The notes below the pieces were generated by a model. It ran no database searches. It was not told where the DNA came from and worked only from the letters and a program-made list of their open reading frames with translations. This document shows positions 3,009 to 63,811 of a stretch of 64,000 nucleotides of DNA, piece by piece. The stretch lies in the UHGV virus genome UHGV-1374897, one strand, 5' to 3'. Position 1 is the stretch's first letter, and each line of letters begins with the position of its first letter. This DNA is from a virus. The translations under genes were made by a program, and so were the position numbers.

Positions 3009-3437
3009 TTATTTTGAGAAGAGAACAACGAGGGGTACAGGAATATCCAAAAAGTTTCTATCCGTGTAGAGAGTAAAAGAATCGGAGTTTGTGCCATAAT
3101 ACTGCACGGCTCTTTCCCGGAATACTCTAATAGAGTTGCTTCTCACATACGGTTCGGCTTTCGGTTCGCACGTAGGAACGGTGGTTGTGCAATCGGAAAG
3201 ACGAGCACGGAACCTTTCTGTATTTTCAATCAAGTCCTGCACCTTGTATGCGTTAAACTCTACAAGTTTAATGCTAACGGCATTCTGAATACTGACGTGT
3301 TCATGAATCTCATGCTCGTCCGGGTAGTAGTCATAGGTGCGCACAATGCGGCACTTTTCACCTCGGCTATTAACGGCGTTTGATGAAACGTCTTGCGCTT
3401 CCGTAGTTCCCCATACTTCAATCTCATTTTCTTTCAT
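3009..3437 (-). CDS. hypothetical early protein (142 aa)
   Basis: ORF downstream of cassette E2. Confidence 0.55.
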   Translation of the reverse strand: MKENEIEVWGTTEAQDVSSNAVNSRGEKCRIVRTYDYYPDEHEIHEHVSIQNAVSIKLVEFNAYKVQDLIENTERFRARLSDCTTTVPTCEPKAEPYVRSNSIRVFRERAVQYYGTNSDSFTLYTDRNFLDIPVPLVVLFSK

Positions 3438-52869: not shown

Positions 52870-53967
52870 ATGGCTACCAAACGTACAGACATATCGAGCG
52901 AGACGAGCGCGAGCGGGGGCATCCCCGCCGCCAAGTCCATTAAGCAGAAGACGATGGACGAGGTGCTTCCGAAGACGAACCCCGACATCCCCCTCCGTCC
53001 AATGAATAACAACGACCCGAACAAACCCGTCGACGCGAAGGAGATGAACACCATCGCCGCGGCCAATAGTAACCACGGCATCAAGAATCCCCCCGCATCC
53101 GCGGCTCCCACGGCGGCCCAGTCTCCTAGTCCCTATGGGCGGGGGATTACTGAGGTCGACCCCAACAGCGCGGCCTACGCCGCCCAGCAACGGGCGACCT
53201 ATGCGGCGGGCATGCAACAAGCCGCGGCGGGGAAACTCTCTGCGGAGGACAGGCTTATGCTTCGTGGCGTGGACCAGAACATAAGCCGTGGGCAGATGCC
53301 TGTCATATCTCCGACTATGCCGACACAAGCGACGGCTTCCACGGGTTCCAAGGGTTCCGCTCCAACCGCTAGCCCCGACACCTCTATGGCTGGGTTCTAT
53401 GCGTATGCGGAGAAGAAGCTTGGCCCGGAGAAGTTCCAGATATTCATGAACATGCCGGATGCGGATAGGAACGCGATGTATAGCAAGTTTGTAGAGAGCC
53501 AGACCAAGAACGTGCCCGCCGCGGGAGCTACCGCGGGAACTACTGCCGCCCCCTCTGGCTCTAGGTTCCCCGCCTCTGCTCTCCCCTCCGGCAATTCCTC
53601 CATACCTACGAGCGTCCCGACGACTGCGGGTACTGGCACGGCCGAGAATATGCTACGAACCTTGAGGGATGAAACCGCCAGCCCCGAAGCGAGAGCACAG
53701 GCGCAAACATACCTCCGCGTCCGAACCATGTACGCCCAGCCGGAAAAGTTTGGTAAGGAGATTAAGACCCTCGAAAAACTGGAACGGGCTAAAATACAAG
53801 AACTGCGCAACATGTTCAGGAATCGGCACAACATCCGGGACCCCCGCTTCGCTCGGCAATACGCGCAGTATAAAGCCCTACAGAAGAAAGACCCGCAAGC
53901 GAGGCTCGCCCTCTACACTGAACTGATGAAGGGACCGGAGTTCACTCACTTGGACTTCCGAAAATAA
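52870..53967 (+). CDS. Ala/Pro/Ser/Thr-rich low-complexity protein (365 aa), internal-virion or tail-assembly candidate
   Basis: ORF immediately upstream of the giant gene. Confidence 0.4.
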   Translation: MATKRTDISSETSASGGIPAAKSIKQKTMDEVLPKTNPDIPLRPMNNNDPNKPVDAKEMNTIAAANSNHGIKNPPASAAPTAAQSPSPYGRGITEVDPNSAAYAAQQRATYAAGMQQAAAGKLSAEDRLMLRGVDQNISRGQMPVISPTMPTQATASTGSKGSAPTASPDTSMAGFYAYAEKKLGPEKFQIFMNMPDADRNAMYSKFVESQTKNVPAAGATAGTTAAPSGSRFPASALPSGNSSIPTSVPTTAGTGTAENMLRTLRDETASPEARAQAQTYLRVRTMYAQPEKFGKEIKTLEKLERAKIQELRNMFRNRHNIRDPRFARQYAQYKALQKKDPQARLALYTELMKGPEFTHLDFRK

Positions 53968-53989: not shown

Positions 53990-54041
53990 TTGACCCTTGC
54001 CCCACTCATGATAGGATAGCGAAGACCCACATGAGTGGGGC
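53990..54041 (+). promoter_or_regulatory. sigma70-like promoter TTGACC-N16-TAGGAT with the -10 inside the loop of a 12-bp-arm hairpin (GCCCCACTCATG ... CATGAGTGGGGC)
   Basis: Consensus hexamers, perfect IR, A/T-rich upstream element. Confidence 0.45.
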
Positions 54042-54069
54042 AAACTTATTATACTAATACTCAACAAAT

Positions 54070-57000
54070 ATGGCCATTGACTTTAGTACCGCCAATATGT
54101 CCGACTTCACTCCGAAGTCGGGAAGCAGTATTGCACGTGAACAGCGAGCCGTAGAAAGGCACGCCGCGTGGCAAGAGACGCAAGCGCAGAAACAAGAAGA
54201 CAGAAAACAGAAAGCACTGGACCGCGAGCAAAGGCTAGCGGAAAAGAGACAGACCCGTGCGGAGAAAGCCGCAGAAGCCACCGCAGAGTTTGACACCTTT
54301 ATCGTTAAGTCCGTGGATGCCTTTGCGGAGAAACAGAAAAAGGATGCGGAACACGCGAAGAATGTAGAATGGCAAGATAAATCCCGCGCCCATACGGAAC
54401 AAGAATGGAAAACCGCCGAGGAAAATAAAGCCCTCGACATCTTGAACAAAGGAAACCGTGGGTACAGCTTTGAGGGAATCGACTACATGAAAGACTATGT
54501 AGAGCGCGGAGAGGATGCACTGGTTGATTTGACGGCCGCCGCTCGTGGCGATAAGGATGCTATTAAAAAGATTACGAATAATACGGGCATCGTCGCAGTC
54601 CTTTCCTCCGAACTTCCTCCCCAACATTCTGCATTCTTATCCCGCTCTGGCTTCGGAAGTGGAGAGGACGGGAACCCCGTCGTAACGGAAAAGTTCCTCG
54701 CTATTGCCGCGGACAGAAACCGTAACGCAAAGGCGGTGGCCAAATCCATTGCCACCACAATGGAGAAGGCCCGGAAGGATTACCTCAACAAGAATCTAGA
54801 TGTTGTGTCTGGTAAACCTACGGCACAAGCCATCGAGACCGCACCTATTGCTTACACCGCAGAAGAAATAGAAAGCGTCATCAATACGATTAGGCGCGAA
54901 GACATTGGCAACTATCGTGCCGCTAAGGCTCTTTACGACAAACACCGCTCTTCTTCGACGGAGGGCGTGCAGAAGAAAACCCCCAGCCAAACGAGCGTGG
55001 GGGAGCTTGGCGTTGGCGAATTCTCTGATTCAGCACCTTCATTTACTGGGAATGTTTTTGCTGAACTCGCCAACCTTTCCAAGTCTCCCAGCAAAATGTT
55101 CCGACTTGTCCGCGACTACGGGGATTACCTGTCCCGGAGTACGGAAGATATTAAATCCCCGGAAGCCAAGGAATCCGATTCCCTTTCTCCCGCCGCTAAA
55201 CGTGCAGGGGAAATGGCAGTAGCGCAGGTTAAAGCCGTGGACAACATTGTCTCGCGGATGGAAGAGAGCTACACCGGATTGGATGCCGTGGGACTAAGGG
55301 ATGCTCTCCTTAACCCCGAAGCAGTAGCTTCTGCGGCATTGGCCCTTGCCCCCGGCGTGGACATGGATGCAGTGCGCGAACGAGCAAATACCTTAGCCAC
55401 CGAGCGTCATGCCGTGGTAACCTCCGACTACCAGAAAGCAATGGCTGATGCCATGATGGAAGAATTGGCTACAAGGTTTCCGGGGGTTCCGAAGAATATA
55501 TTACTACAGGCCGGGACGACGAAACTGATTCAGGACTATACCACCAAAGCTACACCGAGAGGCACCCTCATGGATGCAGTCAAAGGCGCACTGGCTAACT
55601 ACCGAAGCGCGGCAGGACAAGTTGCGGACGTACTTACCTTCCAACCGGGGAATAGTGTGGGCAAGACCACTGACCCAATGAGTACGATGGAATGGAGGAA
55701 GGGAACGAGGCACGGCTCTTGGGAGTATGGTGTAGTGGGAGGCCCTGCCTTTGAAGTAGGTCCCGAACAGTTGAAGGAATACATGGCCCAGTACCATATT
55801 GAAAGTACTCGCGATGCCCTTAACTCCCTCTCCCATGCCGCACGTATGGGTGACTTGGGCGTAGGTCGTGGCAGTCTCTTTGCGTACAACCCGCACACCA
55901 AGGAAGTTGATACGAACGCCACACTCGAACTGAACCCCAATGCTCTCTACAATGATAAGCTGATGGACCAGAGCATAGAGGCTCTCCGTGCTAGTGGCGC
56001 GGACGAAGGTCTCATCAATCGCACCATTGAGAAGTTCCAGAACCTCCGCAAGAAATCCGCACAGGAACTTGTGAAGGACAACATTGCATTGGACGAGACG
56101 CTGGGGACGCTTCGCGATACGTGGCTTGGCTCCGGCTTGCAGTTCAACCCTATCTTGACTGAATCCATGAAGCATCTGGACAAGCACCTTTCCTTCAAGA
56201 ATTTTTACAACGAACAGAAGGAAGTGGGCAAGAGTGACGAGGACATCCTCTCCGCATGGCAGGAGAAAGGGCAAGACACCATCAACTCTGTTCTCCGTGG
56301 GTTGCAGATAGGTACACACAAGGCAATCGACCTTGGGACAGGTGCCGCCTATGGTGCTCTTCTCTTTGCACAGAATGCAGTTGGCAGTCGTGCGGCGATG
56401 GAACATACCCGCACCCTCTGGGACCAGCTGAACAAAAAACAGGAAGCGGAAGCTGAACTTGTTCGAGGCAATATCCTTGCGGATTATACTGCGGAAATCG
56501 CTAACCTCGGCTACCAAATGGTAGCAACCGCGGGGGCTGGTAAAGTTGGCGGCCTCGCTGGGCGTGCACTGGAACGTACCGCGCTATCGCGGTTCGCGAA
56601 GGCAACGGCTAACGTTGTAGCGAAGCGGGCAGAAGCTCTTGTCCCTGCCGCCCGTCCGGGATTGGCGGGACGTTTGAGTGGAACTATTCAGCGCAACCTC
56701 GACAACCTTGCGGCGTTGAACCTCGAACGGGCAGGAGCTGGAGCCGGGGTAAATCTTAGCATCATCTCGCAGGTTGCACCGAATGCTTACTCCGACATCT
56801 TCTATACCATTTATGATAGGGAGATGGAAGGGAAGGAACCGACTGCCGAGAACACGAACAGGGCACAGAGCATTGCCAACATGCGTGCCCTCTTTGGTGC
56901 GGCTCTCGTATCTACTGGTAGTACTCTCATCAACAACCGCGCAGGTATGGATTCCTTCATGCGTAAGATTGTTGGGGCTAAAAACCTTCGCGGTCAATCT

Positions 57001-60000
57001 CCATTCCAAACTCTTGAACGGAAGATGGCCGGATGGAGAAGCAAGCCATTTAAGGAGATGAACACGAAGAAAAAGACGTTTGCCGTTGCTTCCTATCTGT
57101 ACAGCACGAGCAAGGCCGTAGTGGAAGGAGCCACCGAAGAACTGGCAGACGAATTCCAAGAATGGGCATTTACCGAACTGGTGAAGAACGGAGAAATCTC
57201 TGAATCTTCTATTGCCACTACCGACCAAGTGATTAGCGGTGCCATAAAGATTGCTTTCCTCGGAGGTATCGGCGGCTACGTTGGTAGCCACTTAGCTGGT
57301 GAAGGGAACATACGTTTCCAAACCGAAGCCGCTCCAACTCTCGATGTAAAGGATGCTACTTCCATGCTACCGGATATTACGAAAGATGCGAGCAACATCA
57401 TCGAGGAAACGGGCAAAGCCATTACCAAAAACAATGTGCCGGAAAGCTTGGTAGAAACCGGAAAGAAGGTTATCGAGATTGCCGGGGAGAAGGGGGATGC
57501 CGCGGAAGTTGCCCGCGAATGGGTGGACAAATCCATTGCCCATGAAAGTCTAGTTGTCTCCGACGAAACCCGCAAGGCATGGGTGGATGGCGCAGTCCGT
57601 ATGGGTATCAGCAACTTCACCCAGTTCCGCAACCTAGTTGAACGGGCCTCCGAAATACATACCTATGAGGGCAGTGCCGCGGCAAGCTCCTTCATGGCAG
57701 AAGCCATTAACGACTTGCCCAATACCCTGTCATTCCCAAATAAGGAAAACCTCGACACCATGCGAACCATGTTGTCCGAAGCCCTTGATGCTATGGGAGA
57801 CCGGGTTCAGGTTATCGAAGTAGACGACGACCTGTCCATCATTACTACAGGGGACGAGGACCTTGATGCCGCCATTAACGTTATTAACGGATTGACGGAA
57901 GCCGCGGCTACCACGGAATCCCCGGCTACCACGGAATCCCCGGCTACCACGGAACCCAAGGAATCCCCGGTAGCTATTGCCCGGAAGGAGAGGGACAATG
58001 CTATTGCCCCCATCACTGCTATGGTAGAGACGGGAGTAGTTACCCCCAGTTCCGTGGAAACCGTGGATAACATGGATGCGGCAATCGCCTCGTTCGATAG
58101 TAATACTGGTGCGTGGCTCTCCTATGGTACGCCATTGGAGCGCGGCGCGAAGCTCGTCTCCTTGAACGAGATGACCGGGATTAACGCCCCCATGATTACC
58201 AGCAACACGGGAGAAACCATTGTCATCGCTCCGCACGCAAGCATGTACAACACAGGTGAGGGAGGTACCCCCAGCACCAAGTGGGGAGACAAGGTCTCCG
58301 CTCTCAATCTCCCGACGGATGGGACTGGCGCAAATGCCTATGGCATCCTTTCGGACCTTCAAGCTAATGCCTCCCCCGCACAGGCCGCGGCCATTGATGG
58401 AGTGCTCCGCGCACTGCATGCCGCTGGTTTGGATGTTGCTATCCGAGCCACCAATGCCCCGGCGAACATCTCTTCCCCCGCCAGTATCACCTACATGAAC
58501 GGCACGGACGGGAAGCTTGTCGGCGGTGTCATTGACCTGTACGTGGACCGGGACAATGCGATTGAAAGCGTAACGGGAACGGTACTACACGAAGTCATCC
58601 ACCTCATTGACCGTCATCTTCGTGCCACCAACGCGGACTATTCCCAGCGGATGGATAAGATTAGAAGCGCGATTGCAGAGAACTACAACAATATTGTTGA
58701 TAGTCTCTCCGCTATGTATGATGCTAGCGTGGACATCAATGAGATGAACGCCATCGCCGCGCTCGCTTCTGACCTCAACTATGGTCTCCGCGGCCCGGAC
58801 GAATTTGCCAGTGTCGCGTTCTCCAATCCTGTCATGAACTTCATGATAGCGGAAGCTAGCGGAGACAATATAACCATCACGGATTTGGCTCGCTATGCCG
58901 AAGCGGCTGGAGGCAGGAGGCCCATTCATGTGCGCCTCATCGAATGGCTTAAGGATTTGATTAGGGACGTGCAACAAACTGCGGACGCTATGGACGGAAC
59001 CACCGCCGCAGAACACGTGGCTGAATGGGATTCCTATGTGGCCCGCATCGCGGACATGACCCCCGGCAAGTGGTTCGACATGCCTCGCACTCCGTCATGG
59101 AAGGTAGACGATACGGATTATACTATGGGCAACGGGGTAGATTATTTTAACCCGATGGCCTATGAGACTGACATGACCCGAAGACTGTCCTTCGGTCTGG
59201 CCGCAGAAATCATTGGCACGAATGCCGGGAACTGGGTAACCAGTATTAAGAACGGATGGCTGGGTGCAACCAAGAACTGGGACAAGGCTGGCATCAATGT
59301 TAAGTCCGAGGAACAGAAGCTGGTTGTGCTGGAACAAATGGCCAACGTGAATGCGGCATACGAACGTAGTATTAAACGCATTGACAAAATTGGCGATATG
59401 CTTCAACGCCGTGCGGATAAGCTGGGCTGGGATGCCGCTACGCGAAAGAAATGGAGCAAGTCCATTCTTGACATGTCGGGGAATATGGACAACGATATTG
59501 ACCCTGAAACTGTTGCACGCATTAACGCAGAGGCTCAAGCAGAAGTTCGTCAGCATGAACAGACCCGCGACTTCCGTATCGCGTTGGCTAAGAAGACCGT
59601 CACCGATGCCGTCAATAGGCACGCGGAAGCGGTGCGTCTGGCTAACTCCCTTGCGCTTAATAGTGAAGGGAGATTGGAAATCAACGACATGATGCGCCGG
59701 ATTAAAGACATGAGCGTCAAGGGATATGGTGCCATGCTGGACAAGCAGGTAGCTCTCCCCATGCTTTCCCAGCAGATTCACAAATCGCTCTCCGACCTTG
59801 GCTCTCGTATCTCCGCGACGGGGAATGCCAATCTGGAAACCACCTACTTTGGCCTTGCCCGCGACACACAAAACTATCTCGCGGATATGATTAACGAGGT
59901 GGATAGTCCCTTCTCTATGGATGAACTTCTGGACAGGTGGTCCAACCTTCGCAATGACTTCCTCTATGCGGAGAGTACAAACCATCCCACCATCGTCCCT

Positions 60001-63000
60001 ATGATTCAGGACATCGCTAAGACACGGGCCGAAGCTAAACAAATCATCCGGGAAGCCAAGGATGATTTCTACGCCGCAACAAAGCGAGCGGGCGTAACTC
60101 GCGCTGGCGTAGCTACCCCTGCTGGTTCCGTGTGGCTGAAACGGGACAACGCTATCCTCAATGCACGCCGTCAAAAACAAGCGGAGTATATGGCTAAGCG
60201 GGATGCCGCTGAACAGTGGCTTCTGTCACAGGGGGTTGTAGGTCAACTGGTCCACAATGTCATCGCCAATTCCCGTAAAGAAATTGCCGCAACGCAAATC
60301 TCTATTGCCAAGCTCATTGGAGATAGCCGCATGGCTGACAACGCCGCGGAGATGAATTATCTTCATCGCACCTACATGGCCGTAGGACGCCATGCCGGAG
60401 ACTTCACCCGGACGATGAAGGACATCATCGCAAACCCCAACGGAGAACTGGCGCAGAAATACGACGGTCTGACGAAACTGTTGCAGGAAGCCGCAATCTC
60501 TCATGCCGAAGCGCACCAGAGAGAACTGTCCGAAAACGTAAGCCAAGTGCTGGACAACATGCAGGCATTGGCCGCGCTCCACGACGAGTTGAAACTTCCG
60601 CTGGTGTCAGCTCCCACGGGAGCCTCCGCGAATTATAAACTCCTGTTCGAGGGTGTAGCCAAGAACTACAGGAACAGGGAAATTCTGGACTTCATTCAGA
60701 ACAACTTCGGCCAGGTTCAAATGCTTGCAGATTTGAGGGACGGCCACAACATCAGTGCCATATATAATAAGGCCATGAGCATGATAGCACAGGCAGACTA
60801 TCGCACGAAGTCAAAGATGACAGAGGCGAAGGAAACTCTGGACATGAATGCCAGAGATAGTTTCCTCGCTGATGTCTTCTCCAGCCTTCCGGGAAAAACG
60901 ATTGCGGACAAAATTGGCAGTCTTCAATCCCCGGCATCCGTGGCTTCCGAAGTGAACAAGGCCATCCCCACTATCCCGACTTCGGCCATTGACCAGATAT
61001 GGAACACGCCCGATATGAATGCCGCAGAACGACTGGACAAGACGCTCAATCTTCTTCGCGGTCAGGCTGGCGTTCTCATGAGGATGAACGGCATGGGCAA
61101 CGTCATCTCCGCTACCGACTTGAAAGCGTTGCAATATCCGGAACTCTCCCGCCTCGCAGTGAACGATGCCATGAAGGCCATTGACGAAGTTCTGTCCAAG
61201 AAGAGGACGAATGAAGATGCGCTGGCCCAGCGGAAACGCTTGCCCGAATGGCAGAGGAAAGCTATGTATGAACTTAGCGACCTCACCATTGGGGATGCCA
61301 TTGGGACGTTACAGAATACCCTATCCATGCAGTCGAAGATTGCCGTGAACCAGTTGCTTGCTGACGAGTATGCCTCCGTACTGAAAGCGCAGGGTGTGGT
61401 CGTACCCCCGAATTCCACAAACCGTACCTCGGACATGGTGGAAATCTCCTTGAAGAATACGAAGAATGCGTTGAACGGAATGTACGCCGACAAGGATGTA
61501 GCCGATGCCATCTACCGCATCTACAGACCGAGCGACGACATCCTGAATAACAGGACGGACGACTATAAGGAGGTGCGCAAGTACTGGCAGAAGTCCGGCA
61601 AGGGGCAAGGATGGTGGAATAAGGCGGGTGGCTTGGCTAACCTTTCTGTCTTAATAGCGAGTCCTAATTCCACGTTACGTAACTTATATGGTACAGTAGC
61701 TCAAATGACCCATGCGGGTGCACTCCCATTCACGGGGAGTAAAGACATCGCAAACCTTGTCGGGGACTGGGTCCAGTTGCGTAAGCTATGGTGGCTATCA
61801 CAGGGCAAGGACCTTGCTTCACAGGCTTCCGCGGATAGACTGCTGGCCGCGGAAGACAGGTACAACGAGAAGATTCGCTACTGGCAAGAGCTTGGTCTGC
61901 TGGACGCAGGTCAAGGGGAGTTCCTGCGCAACGTCTGGAAGTCTGACGAGTTCAGTAAGATGGCAGGAGAATTTGAAGAAGTGAATGAGGATTCCTTCTT
62001 CAAACTGGCCGAAGCTCTGAACGAGAAACAGGAACGGACGAAGGGCGAGGTGGCTAAGGATGCCGCCAAGATGGCGGGCAAAGTCGTAGCATGGCCCATC
62101 AAAACGATGTCCTTCGCCTATGGCTTGCCGGACGCGGCGGCCAAGATTGTTCTCTTCACTAACCAGAGAGCGATTGCCGATACCCAATTAAAGGTACAAC
62201 TGGCGCGGGCGAAGGGCAAGGCCAACCCCAATGCGCGGGACCAGATACTCATTGACGCGAGCCAGACTACCCAGAGTTGGGATGCTTATGTGGACAGGTA
62301 TACTGCCCACATGGTGAAGAGCTTGCTCCCCACGGGTTCGCGTACTCCTTCGTGGGTGAAAACCCTGAATATAGTTGCGGCTCCGTTCTTCATGTTCCAG
62401 TACCATACCTTCCAGTCTGTAGCCTACAACCTTGGCCACGCCATAGGTGAAGGGGTAGACGGTGTGTGGGCTATCAATAACGGCATGAAGAAGGAGGGGG
62501 CTTACCTCTTGGGACGCGCTATCCTTCGTACCGCGGGTTCCTTAGTAACTATTTCTGCAACCTCTGCGGTCTCTTCCTGGGTTGCCCGACAGATTATCGC
62601 CAGTGTCTTGGGAGATGACGATGACCGTAAAATCATTGACGACGCGGAAGTCATGAGGAAGCTGGCAGATAGTGGGCTAATTCCTGACTATGATAAGTTC
62701 GGGGACTTGATTGGCATCATAGATATGAAGCGACATGAGTTCGAGTATTTGAACCTTGAATACATGAACCCGTTCAAGACCATCAGGGTGTTAGCCAAAA
62801 CCCTGCCCAGCCTCTTCATGGATATGGATGTGGACAAGTGGGGGATGAACAAGGTTGCCGAACTGAAAAACCTGCTGGAAAATACGGTGCTTGAAGAATC
62901 CCTCCTTCTGAATGCCGCTTCTGAATTGTTTAATGAGGAAGACTTCAATTACAAGCATAGCCTCTCCGGTGATGAAAGCGTCAACGTTCTCCCGGCAGTC

Positions 63001-63726
63001 GGCAACGCAATCCTGTTGGCCGCAGGGCTGAACCCCTCGTTCGGCAGTGGACATACATGGCAAGTCCTTGAACGATTCGCGACGGTTGCCAATAAAAAGA
63101 TTCCCTTCTACGGCTGGGCAGTCAAGTCAGGTAAACAATTGTTTAGCGATACACCTGACATGAGTGCCGCGGCATACGGGTTACAGTCCTTGGGTGCGGG
63201 CCTCCGTCGTCCGAAGGATTTGACCGAAGCCCTTGCCGCCGGGTTAAAGAATGCCAACGCGGCAGTCACTAAGTCGAAGCGAATGAGCGTCCTTCGTCCG
63301 GACTTCTACAAGAGAATGGAATCCGGAGTGGATGTGGAATCTATGGAAGCCGTGGAAACCGCGGATGCCGTGAAGAATTTCACCAAGCTAGTCAATAGTG
63401 TCCGGTTTGTTACGGAAATTACAAACATGCTTGACCCCGCTCTGCGGAAGGAAGTTCTGGCTTCCGCGATTGAGAGTTCCGGTATGAGTGCCAAGACCTA
63501 CGGCGCGGCCATGAAAGGCATCATGCCCTACATCATTAGCCCGCAAGCAGGACGTGAGGCTATCGCGAAGCTCAACCGTGAATTGCAGAAGTCTAATACC
63601 ACGGACGAGGGCAAACGCCTAATCGAAGAGCAGAAGAAACTCATTATCAACCTCATGAGGAAGGGTAGCATTCAGATTGATGGGGCATTGAGTGTGGAGG
63701 AAATTCATAATCGGATGAAACAGTAA
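54070..63726 (+). CDS. giant virion-associated protein (3218 aa) with an HExxH zinc-metallopeptidase signature; ejected polyvalent or internal-core protein candidate
   Basis: Single uninterrupted ORF. Charged coiled-coil N-terminus (KQEDRKQKALDREQRLAEKRQTRAEKAAE); ESPATT x3 repeat (about 57900); VLHEVIHLIDRH with a Glu about 26 residues downstream (about 58585); last gene of the structural operon, with its own promoter and terminator. Confidence 0.7.
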   Translation: MAIDFSTANMSDFTPKSGSSIAREQRAVERHAAWQETQAQKQEDRKQKALDREQRLAEKRQTRAEKAAEATAEFDTFIVKSVDAFAEKQKKDAEHAKNVEWQDKSRAHTEQEWKTAEENKALDILNKGNRGYSFEGIDYMKDYVERGEDALVDLTAAARGDKDAIKKITNNTGIVAVLSSELPPQHSAFLSRSGFGSGEDGNPVVTEKFLAIAADRNRNAKAVAKSIATTMEKARKDYLNKNLDVVSGKPTAQAIETAPIAYTAEEIESVINTIRREDIGNYRAAKALYDKHRSSSTEGVQKKTPSQTSVGELGVGEFSDSAPSFTGNVFAELANLSKSPSKMFRLVRDYGDYLSRSTEDIKSPEAKESDSLSPAAKRAGEMAVAQVKAVDNIVSRMEESYTGLDAVGLRDALLNPEAVASAALALAPGVDMDAVRERANTLATERHAVVTSDYQKAMADAMMEELATRFPGVPKNILLQAGTTKLIQDYTTKATPRGTLMDAVKGALANYRSAAGQVADVLTFQPGNSVGKTTDPMSTMEWRKGTRHGSWEYGVVGGPAFEVGPEQLKEYMAQYHIESTRDALNSLSHAARMGDLGVGRGSLFAYNPHTKEVDTNATLELNPNALYNDKLMDQSIEALRASGADEGLINRTIEKFQNLRKKSAQELVKDNIALDETLGTLRDTWLGSGLQFNPILTESMKHLDKHLSFKNFYNEQKEVGKSDEDILSAWQEKGQDTINSVLRGLQIGTHKAIDLGTGAAYGALLFAQNAVGSRAAMEHTRTLWDQLNKKQEAEAELVRGNILADYTAEIANLGYQMVATAGAGKVGGLAGRALERTALSRFAKATANVVAKRAEALVPAARPGLAGRLSGTIQRNLDNLAALNLERAGAGAGVNLSIISQVAPNAYSDIFYTIYDREMEGKEPTAENTNRAQSIANMRALFGAALVSTGSTLINNRAGMDSFMRKIVGAKNLRGQSPFQTLERKMAGWRSKPFKEMNTKKKTFAVASYLYSTSKAVVEGATEELADEFQEWAFTELVKNGEISESSIATTDQVISGAIKIAFLGGIGGYVGSHLAGEGNIRFQTEAAPTLDVKDATSMLPDITKDASNIIEETGKAITKNNVPESLVETGKKVIEIAGEKGDAAEVAREWVDKSIAHESLVVSDETRKAWVDGAVRMGISNFTQFRNLVERASEIHTYEGSAAASSFMAEAINDLPNTLSFPNKENLDTMRTMLSEALDAMGDRVQVIEVDDDLSIITTGDEDLDAAINVINGLTEAAATTESPATTESPATTEPKESPVAIARKERDNAIAPITAMVETGVVTPSSVETVDNMDAAIASFDSNTGAWLSYGTPLERGAKLVSLNEMTGINAPMITSNTGETIVIAPHASMYNTGEGGTPSTKWGDKVSALNLPTDGTGANAYGILSDLQANASPAQAAAIDGVLRALHAAGLDVAIRATNAPANISSPASITYMNGTDGKLVGGVIDLYVDRDNAIESVTGTVLHEVIHLIDRHLRATNADYSQRMDKIRSAIAENYNNIVDSLSAMYDASVDINEMNAIAALASDLNYGLRGPDEFASVAFSNPVMNFMIAEASGDNITITDLARYAEAAGGRRPIHVRLIEWLKDLIRDVQQTADAMDGTTAAEHVAEWDSYVARIADMTPGKWFDMPRTPSWKVDDTDYTMGNGVDYFNPMAYETDMTRRLSFGLAAEIIGTNAGNWVTSIKNGWLGATKNWDKAGINVKSEEQKLVVLEQMANVNAAYERSIKRIDKIGDMLQRRADKLGWDAATRKKWSKSILDMSGNMDNDIDPETVARINAEAQAEVRQHEQTRDFRIALAKKTVTDAVNRHAEAVRLANSLALNSEGRLEINDMMRRIKDMSVKGYGAMLDKQVALPMLSQQIHKSLSDLGSRISATGNANLETTYFGLARDTQNYLADMINEVDSPFSMDELLDRWSNLRNDFLYAESTNHPTIVPMIQDIAKTRAEAKQIIREAKDDFYAATKRAGVTRAGVATPAGSVWLKRDNAILNARRQKQAEYMAKRDAAEQWLLSQGVVGQLVHNVIANSRKEIAATQISIAKLIGDSRMADNAAEMNYLHRTYMAVGRHAGDFTRTMKDIIANPNGELAQKYDGLTKLLQEAAISHAEAHQRELSENVSQVLDNMQALAALHDELKLPLVSAPTGASANYKLLFEGVAKNYRNREILDFIQNNFGQVQMLADLRDGHNISAIYNKAMSMIAQADYRTKSKMTEAKETLDMNARDSFLADVFSSLPGKTIADKIGSLQSPASVASEVNKAIPTIPTSAIDQIWNTPDMNAAERLDKTLNLLRGQAGVLMRMNGMGNVISATDLKALQYPELSRLAVNDAMKAIDEVLSKKRTNEDALAQRKRLPEWQRKAMYELSDLTIGDAIGTLQNTLSMQSKIAVNQLLADEYASVLKAQGVVVPPNSTNRTSDMVEISLKNTKNALNGMYADKDVADAIYRIYRPSDDILNNRTDDYKEVRKYWQKSGKGQGWWNKAGGLANLSVLIASPNSTLRNLYGTVAQMTHAGALPFTGSKDIANLVGDWVQLRKLWWLSQGKDLASQASADRLLAAEDRYNEKIRYWQELGLLDAGQGEFLRNVWKSDEFSKMAGEFEEVNEDSFFKLAEALNEKQERTKGEVAKDAAKMAGKVVAWPIKTMSFAYGLPDAAAKIVLFTNQRAIADTQLKVQLARAKGKANPNARDQILIDASQTTQSWDAYVDRYTAHMVKSLLPTGSRTPSWVKTLNIVAAPFFMFQYHTFQSVAYNLGHAIGEGVDGVWAINNGMKKEGAYLLGRAILRTAGSLVTISATSAVSSWVARQIIASVLGDDDDRKIIDDAEVMRKLADSGLIPDYDKFGDLIGIIDMKRHEFEYLNLEYMNPFKTIRVLAKTLPSLFMDMDVDKWGMNKVAELKNLLENTVLEESLLLNAASELFNEEDFNYKHSLSGDESVNVLPAVGNAILLAAGLNPSFGSGHTWQVLERFATVANKKIPFYGWAVKSGKQLFSDTPDMSAAAYGLQSLGAGLRRPKDLTEALAAGLKNANAAVTKSKRMSVLRPDFYKRMESGVDVESMEAVETADAVKNFTKLVNSVRFVTEITNMLDPALRKEVLASAIESSGMSAKTYGAAMKGIMPYIISPQAGREAIAKLNRELQKSNTTDEGKRLIEEQKKLIINLMRKGSIQIDGALSVEEIHNRMKQ

Positions 63727-63743: not shown

Positions 63744-63790
63744 TTGACCTTCGGGGGCATGGGAGATATAATTCTCCCATGCCCTCTTTT
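63744..63790 (+). promoter_or_regulatory. Composite element: terminator hairpin GGGCATGGGAGA-tataat-TCTCCCATGCCC + TCTTTT, whose loop is the -10 (TATAAT) of the promoter TTGACC-N17-TATAAT
   Basis: Perfect 12-bp IR with a T-tract; consensus -35 17 bp upstream of the loop. Confidence 0.55.
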
Positions 63791-63811
63791 CGTATAGTAC
63801 CCAATCATATT

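Follow-up and report, generated by a model that had tools for sequence, protein, structure and literature searches.

A giant cysteine-free phage protein with a zincin-like domain related by sequence profiles to the C1 domain of N4 virion RNA polymerase

Few parts of phage infection are as poorly understood as giant ejected proteins. A zincin-like domain called MPTase defines the ejected 'polyvalent proteins' described by Iyer, Burroughs, Anand, de Souza and Aravind in 2017, in which it is a hub domain that was proposed to process them (PMC5512222). Residues 2130–2448 of the N4 protein constitute such a zincin-like MPTase, and this portion is required for encapsidation (PMC5512222). Within gp50, the virion RNA polymerase (vRNAP) of N4, for which a cryo-EM structure became available in 2026, the C1 domain carries a conserved HExxH motif and the C2 domain is all-alpha and lacks known homologs (PMC13434306). 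Here we compare these systems with a giant protein encoded in a 64,000-nucleotide stretch of the UHGV virus genome UHGV-1374897 (hereafter the window).

A single open reading frame (ORF) with an ATG start spans positions 54070..63726 on the plus strand and encodes 3218 amino acids, occupying 15.1% of the window, as the first-pass annotation of this DNA had estimated (3218 aa, 15%). The source phage is uncultivated, roughly 70 kb in size, human-associated and probably from the gut. More than 130 full-length homologs of 3199–3470 aa are present in independent metagenomic assemblies (contigs of 66–71 kb), and thus the ORF is not an assembly artefact, a possibility that the first-pass annotation had raised. 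The family comprises nine lineages that are collinear end to end, with identity falling to 23% between the most distant members. The ORF is a genuine gene under selection.

Searches of GenBank phages by megablast and tblastn with the giant ORF gave zero matches. A scan of isolate and species-representative genomes likewise found zero relatives, and thus no host clue emerges. An exhaustive phmmer search with residues 1291–2490 against 1.84 billion representatives returned eight matches, all from the same family. Comparisons with Pfam, PHROGs and PDB sequences, of which the Pfam and PDB checks had been proposed earlier, yielded nothing significant for the single protein, the family profile or seven members. 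Neither Pfam nor PHROGs has a model for this family, and its genes are therefore currently annotated only as 'hypothetical protein'. The only recognisable part of the protein is a zincin-like domain, and about 90% of the chain is unassignable. Features discussed below are collected in Table 1.

Table 1. Positions of features in and around the giant ORF.
Feature	Position	Strand	Basis or character
365-aa protein upstream of giant ORF	52870..53967	+	Cys-free; Ala/Pro/Ser/Thr low-complexity; basic helical C-terminus
Promoter-like site and hairpin upstream of giant ORF	53990..54043	+	TTGACC-16-TAGGAT; hexamers and hairpin
Highly charged N-terminal segment, aa 17–130	54118..54459	+	41% D/E/K/R versus 25% for whole protein
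Family-conserved block, aa 936–1072	56875..57285	+	Family-mean hydropathy, conservation, invariant residues
TESPAT linker, low-complexity, 3.3 copies	57895..57954	+	Tandem Repeats Finder: 18-nt unit, 95% match
Zincin-like (MPTase / N4 gp50 C1-like) domain, aa 1441–1631	58390..58962	+	Conservation, AF2 model, hhalign
C-terminal ~1550 aa	59065..63723	+	Almost gap-free across lineages
Stretch similar to N4 gp50 C2, aa ~2341–2700	61090..62169	+	Weak collinear profile match, gp50 aa ~3043–3383
Terminator/promoter composite downstream of giant ORF	63744..63795	+	14-bp hairpin and T-run, overlapping promoter-like hexamers

The giant protein contains one HExxH motif, HEVIH at residues 1507–1511 (nucleotides 58588–58602), compared with about 0.04 expected by chance from its composition. 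H1507 and H1511 are invariant, and E1508 occurs in 17 of 18 sequences at identities down to 23%; lineage P0150 carries HKxxH instead. Also invariant, or almost so, in the family alignment are D1514 (58609–58611), Y1524, E1578-F1579 and N1586-P1587, with an EFx6N motif running from residue 1578 to 1586 (58801–58827). Two invariant residues are candidate third zinc ligands: D1514, which extends the motif to HExxHxxD, and E1578, which lies on helix 247–256 of the AF2 domain model. H1516 was rejected for this role, as it is missing in lineage P0155. The model (pLDDT 74.7, pTM 0.70; core pLDDT 80–92) has the order helix 107–123, strands 126–132, 142–148 and 154–162, and helix 172–191, with HExxH predicted to reside on this last helix. 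Conservation and the predicted fold together indicate that HExxH is a conserved zincin-like site and not a chance match. The HEVIH...E signature proposed from the sequence is borne out as a zincin-like site by family-wide conservation of HExxHxxD and EFx6N and by the zincin order of the model, and the suspicion that a third ligand might not be conserved is countered by the invariance of the candidates D1514 and E1578.

Fold searches returned weak zincin matches, and Foldseek against the PDB with a 1200-aa model retrieved mostly coiled coils. Structural neighbours in BFVD belong to zincins and to ejected or internal proteins, among them internal protein D, an internal core protein, SprT-like proteins, crAss-like giant proteins, a polyvalent-protein domain and an N4-like vRNAP fragment; the top neighbour (E 5.7e-3) is a fragment of 'Internal protein D'. 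No significant match was obtained between the domain and curated family models or solved zincins. The minimal zincins of SprT/Spartan-like and M34 (lethal-factor-like) type gave E-values that are not significant and occur in a wholly different context; the giant protein is not a member of those sequence families.

A closer relationship is found with gp50. When the family profile was compared by hhalign with a profile of nine Schitoviridae vRNAPs, the HExxH domain corresponded to C1 with a probability of 93% (E 2.7e-7, 83 columns), and a second, independently built alignment gave 90% (E 1.4e-6, 165 columns), these E-values referring to single pairwise comparisons of shallow profiles (Neff ~3). 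In a matrix of 16 region pairs, the two other pairs whose query also spans the zincin domain reached 92.5% and 80.7%, and the remaining 13 gave 4.4% or less. The C1 match scored 55, versus a maximum of 17.6 after column shuffling; reversed templates gave 16.9 and 27.8. This signal was seen at the domain level only; whole-length hhalign against N4 gp50 or against the vRNAP profile produced spurious long alignments. On these profile comparisons, the zincin-like domain of the giant protein is homologous to C1 (MPTase) of N4 vRNAP, although a mobile module, and not common descent of the whole proteins, could also account for it. Among the look-alikes named in the first-pass annotation, the specific kin is the C-terminal domain of N4-type gp50 and not T7 gp16.

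The region following the zincin-like domain has three conserved blocks (residues 2504–2556, 2601–2625 and 2750–2800) and includes a hydrophobic segment at residues 2969–2991. A model of residues 1300–2499, of low confidence in places, predicts that residues ~1750–2499 are alpha-helical with long helices. The similarity to C2 (Table 1) extends over 309 columns with P = 6.4e-4 and a probability of 27.7%, which is below significance; its score is 48.6, versus 27.8 with the reversed template. A D-x-x-A-K motif occurs in a similar context in both proteins, as YGLPDAAAKIVLF in the giant protein and YSDFIAKAIIY in N4. A C2-like nature of residues ~2341–2700 is suggestive only.

At the opposite end, the highly charged N-terminus seen at first pass is evident from composition (Table 1); a Caldesmon-like Pfam match to this segment is weak and compositional only. 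Farther along, the family-conserved block contains an acidic motif, EGATEELADEFQEW, and moderately hydrophobic, Gly/Ala-rich helices, VISGAIKIAFLGGIGGYVG, which are candidate membrane-interacting segments. No transmembrane helices were found in the giant protein at a strict hydropathy threshold, the conserved segments being only moderately hydrophobic. The repeat described earlier as a threefold ESPATT corresponds to the TESPAT linker of Table 1, which divides the N-terminal 1275 residues from the remainder. Its length differs among close homologs, and because it sits at this indel hot spot it behaves as a variable linker. By analogy, it may correspond to the low-complexity linker between the N-terminal domain (NTD) and the RNAP of N4 gp50 (PMC13434306).

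Also shared with gp50 is a lack of cysteine. The giant protein contains none, an outcome with P ~1e-18 if cysteine were as frequent as in the window's other ORFs (1.28%), and family members have 0–3 per ~3300 residues. Among Schitoviridae, cysteine is absent from all nine vRNAPs, all six gp51-like proteins and three of four gp52-like proteins. The 365-aa protein encoded immediately upstream of the giant ORF is Cys-free in all three lineages examined, and its 266-aa and 985-aa neighbours have 2–16 cysteines. Neither the 985-aa nor the 365-aa protein matched PDB sequences. The 365-aa protein may be a co-ejected partner. The absence of cysteine common to gp50, nearly all gp51- and gp52-like proteins, the giant family and this upstream candidate suggests a simple sequence-based rule by which ejected proteins of uncultivated phages might be predicted.

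The giant gene resides at the end of its module. In three lineages it closes the virion/lysis block, in agreement with where the first-pass annotation had placed it; upstream lie a probable fibre gene and a lysis cassette, and downstream one or two small ORFs followed by an opposite-strand module. The phage's structural proteins gave zero matches to PHROG and Pfam. The sigma70-type promoter assigned to the gene at first pass is recognisable at 53990–54017 (9 of 12 consensus matches, with TG before the −10 hexamer) and is embedded in a hairpin with a 14-bp stem (53997–54043); the start codon at 54070 lacks a preceding Shine-Dalgarno sequence. The terminator/promoter composite reported after the gene was likewise recovered, with a promoter-like site at 63744–63772 (TTGACC-17-TATAAT, 11 of 12 matches) that overlaps the hairpin and T-run at 63753–63786. 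Hairpins flank the giant gene on both sides in two distant relatives (L029 and L030), with promoter-like hexamers at three of the four flanks; L029 has a TTGACA promoter-like site upstream and TTGACA-17-TATATT downstream. Sigma70-type promoters occur on both strands of the window, and the minus-strand module has five that are near-identical and no N4-type hairpin promoters.

On balance, we favour the view that the giant protein is a capsid-packaged ejection protein, a functional and partly evolutionary counterpart of gp50 minus the RNA polymerase module. This reading builds on the observed ORF integrity, motif conservation, C1 homology, cysteine avoidance and synteny, from which we infer virion packaging, ejection, a membrane role and proteolysis. 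If this model is correct, an N-terminal portion of ~1275 residues, with its charged start and Gly/Ala-rich amphipathic helices, would contact the membrane or ejectosome, and would be followed by the TESPAT linker, the zincin-like HExxHxxD...EFx6N domain and a C-terminal region of ~1550 residues that is possibly C2-like. A few copies would enter the capsid by way of the C-terminal half. During infection, the chain would be threaded largely unfolded, domain by domain, via the tail and cell envelope, and its lack of cysteine would keep disulfides from trapping it in the periplasm. After passage it may help to build or anchor a DNA conduit, and the zincin domain may process the protein itself or act on a host target. 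Phage transcription would be left to the host sigma70 RNA polymerase. A bolder version, which we regard as possible but doubtful, holds that the family is a polymerase-free gp50 scaffold composed of an envelope-interacting N-terminus, a linker, a zincin and a helical packaging domain.

Other readings of the same data were weighed. The protein might be a polyvalent effector in the strict sense, in which novel enzymatic or anti-defence domains on the N- and C-terminal sides are freed by the zincin after injection. MPTase has such a hub role, and the Asp three residues after HExxH recalls the phage-type MPTase clade (PMC5512222). The resemblance to polyvalent MPTases further includes a three-stranded sheet before the HExxH helix, a Glu on a helix farther along, beyond helical inserts, and a location in the middle of a very large chain that is probably associated with the virion. 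Polyvalent-protein fragments are among the BFVD neighbours, and invariant polar residues are present in blocks 2504–2556 and 2750–2800. However, the giant protein lacks the conserved His that ends strand 2 in the phage-type clade, and Pfam models miss its domain. None of the ART, SNF2, methylase, MuF or lysozyme partner domains of polyvalent proteins is present, and no second catalytic domain was found with Pfam, PHROGs, PDB sequences or profiles in seven members. The modelled part consists of long helices and not compact enzyme folds, and strict collinearity with almost no indels over nine lineages is unlike the usual domain shuffling. We consider this reading unlikely. The first-pass label 'polyvalent protein' survives for the MPTase-type domain and its virion-module context, but not for several disparate activities, as one enzyme-like domain is recognisable; the anti-defence role attached to that label found no support.

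A second alternative is a genuine virion RNA polymerase with a catalytic module, whether N4/T7-like or a crAss-like double-psi beta-barrel, too divergent to be recognised. Its size, Cys-free composition, C1-like domain and gene position are as in N4 gp50, and the N4 RNAP is itself barely detectable by sequence when compared with that of T7. Moreover, ~2700 residues are without assignment, and models cover residues 1300–2499. Against this, the RNAP-domain profile of the nine Schitoviridae vRNAPs gave 0.3% or less for every region, and whole-protein hhalign against N4 gp50 gave 1.5%. The DxDGD motif, found in the double-psi beta-barrels of crAss-like virion RNAPs of the phi14:2 gp66 type, is missing from the giant protein, a difference established at the motif level only. 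An NxDxDxD-like string (NMDNDID, residue 1804) was rejected as an RNAP metal site, as it is not conserved in the family. Only ~140 residues separate the linker from the C1-like domain, where gp50 has an RNAP of 1100 aa, and residues 1750–2499 are modelled as long helices. Among the ORFs scanned there is no RNAPII-like gene or RNAP PHROG match, and the five minus-strand promoters are of sigma70 type, not N4-type hairpins. The earlier judgement that a polymerase was unsupported agrees with these results, and we consider this reading improbable.

The giant gene is a separate transcription unit, and the virion location of its product is inferred, so the protein might instead be a late intracellular or membrane scaffold that serves lysis timing, superinfection exclusion or a replication compartment. 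This is very improbable given the homology to the part of gp50 needed for encapsidation (PMC5512222), a cysteine avoidance common to ejected proteins and the conserved place at the end of the virion module.

Finally, tape-measure proteins can likewise be long and helical (as this protein is where modelled), with hydrophobic segments rich in Gly/Ala and a peptidase-like domain within the chain, and no other candidate was recognised in the window. Even so, a tape measure for a very long tail, with an incidental peptidase domain, is scarcely credible for an operon-terminal gene with a promoter and terminator of its own and no downstream tail-tip genes. The gene follows one for a low-complexity protein instead of a chaperone pair and has a probable fibre gene and lysis cassette upstream; its product shares its sole detectable homology with a podovirus ejection protein, and 3218 residues would specify a tail of ~480 nm.

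If the family is indeed a polymerase-free gp50 scaffold, the bolder version above, then N4 vRNAP may have arisen by insertion of a T7-like RNAP into an older giant ejection protein, or the RNAP may have been lost in this family. In that case, full cysteine avoidance could serve generally to predict which phage proteins are threaded across tail and periplasm. The ~2700 unassigned residues could also conceal new activities.

Compared with gp14, gp15 and gp16 of T7, three internal proteins that are ejected and then span the envelope, the giant protein has the same proposed role, but it is one 355-kDa chain with no sequence similarity to them, and Pfam models detect no lytic transglycosylase (SLT) or lysozyme in it. 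Its genome also differs from those of schitoviruses: the late proteins are dissimilar, the minus-strand module has sigma70 promoters and no RNAPII gene was found among the ORFs scanned. No late ORF had a significant BLASTP match to the late proteins of N4, and the upstream 985-, 266- and 365-aa proteins show no similarity to N4 gp53, gp52 and gp51, the 365-aa protein resembling neither gp51 nor gp52. Thus, the phage is not a schitovirus. The giant protein differs from gp50 itself in that a T7-like RNAP module is not detectable and would not fit between linker and C1, and in a region after C1 that is ~400 aa longer; the lipid-binding NTD of gp50 matched the N-terminal region with a best probability of 1.7% in the region matrix. 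Like gp50 (3000–3600 aa, versus 3199–3470 aa in this family), it is nevertheless a single giant polypeptide with a low-complexity linker after the N-terminal region and one conserved HExxH followed by EFx6N at equal spacing, and in three lineages its gene closes the virion operon, after one for a Cys-free low-complexity protein, as small Cys-free proteins precede gp50. A widespread lineage with gp50-like parts and no polymerase makes the question of the ejection and packaging scaffold separable from transcription. It offers a natural deletion variant for C1 and C2 function and bears on the origin of the N4 polymerase.

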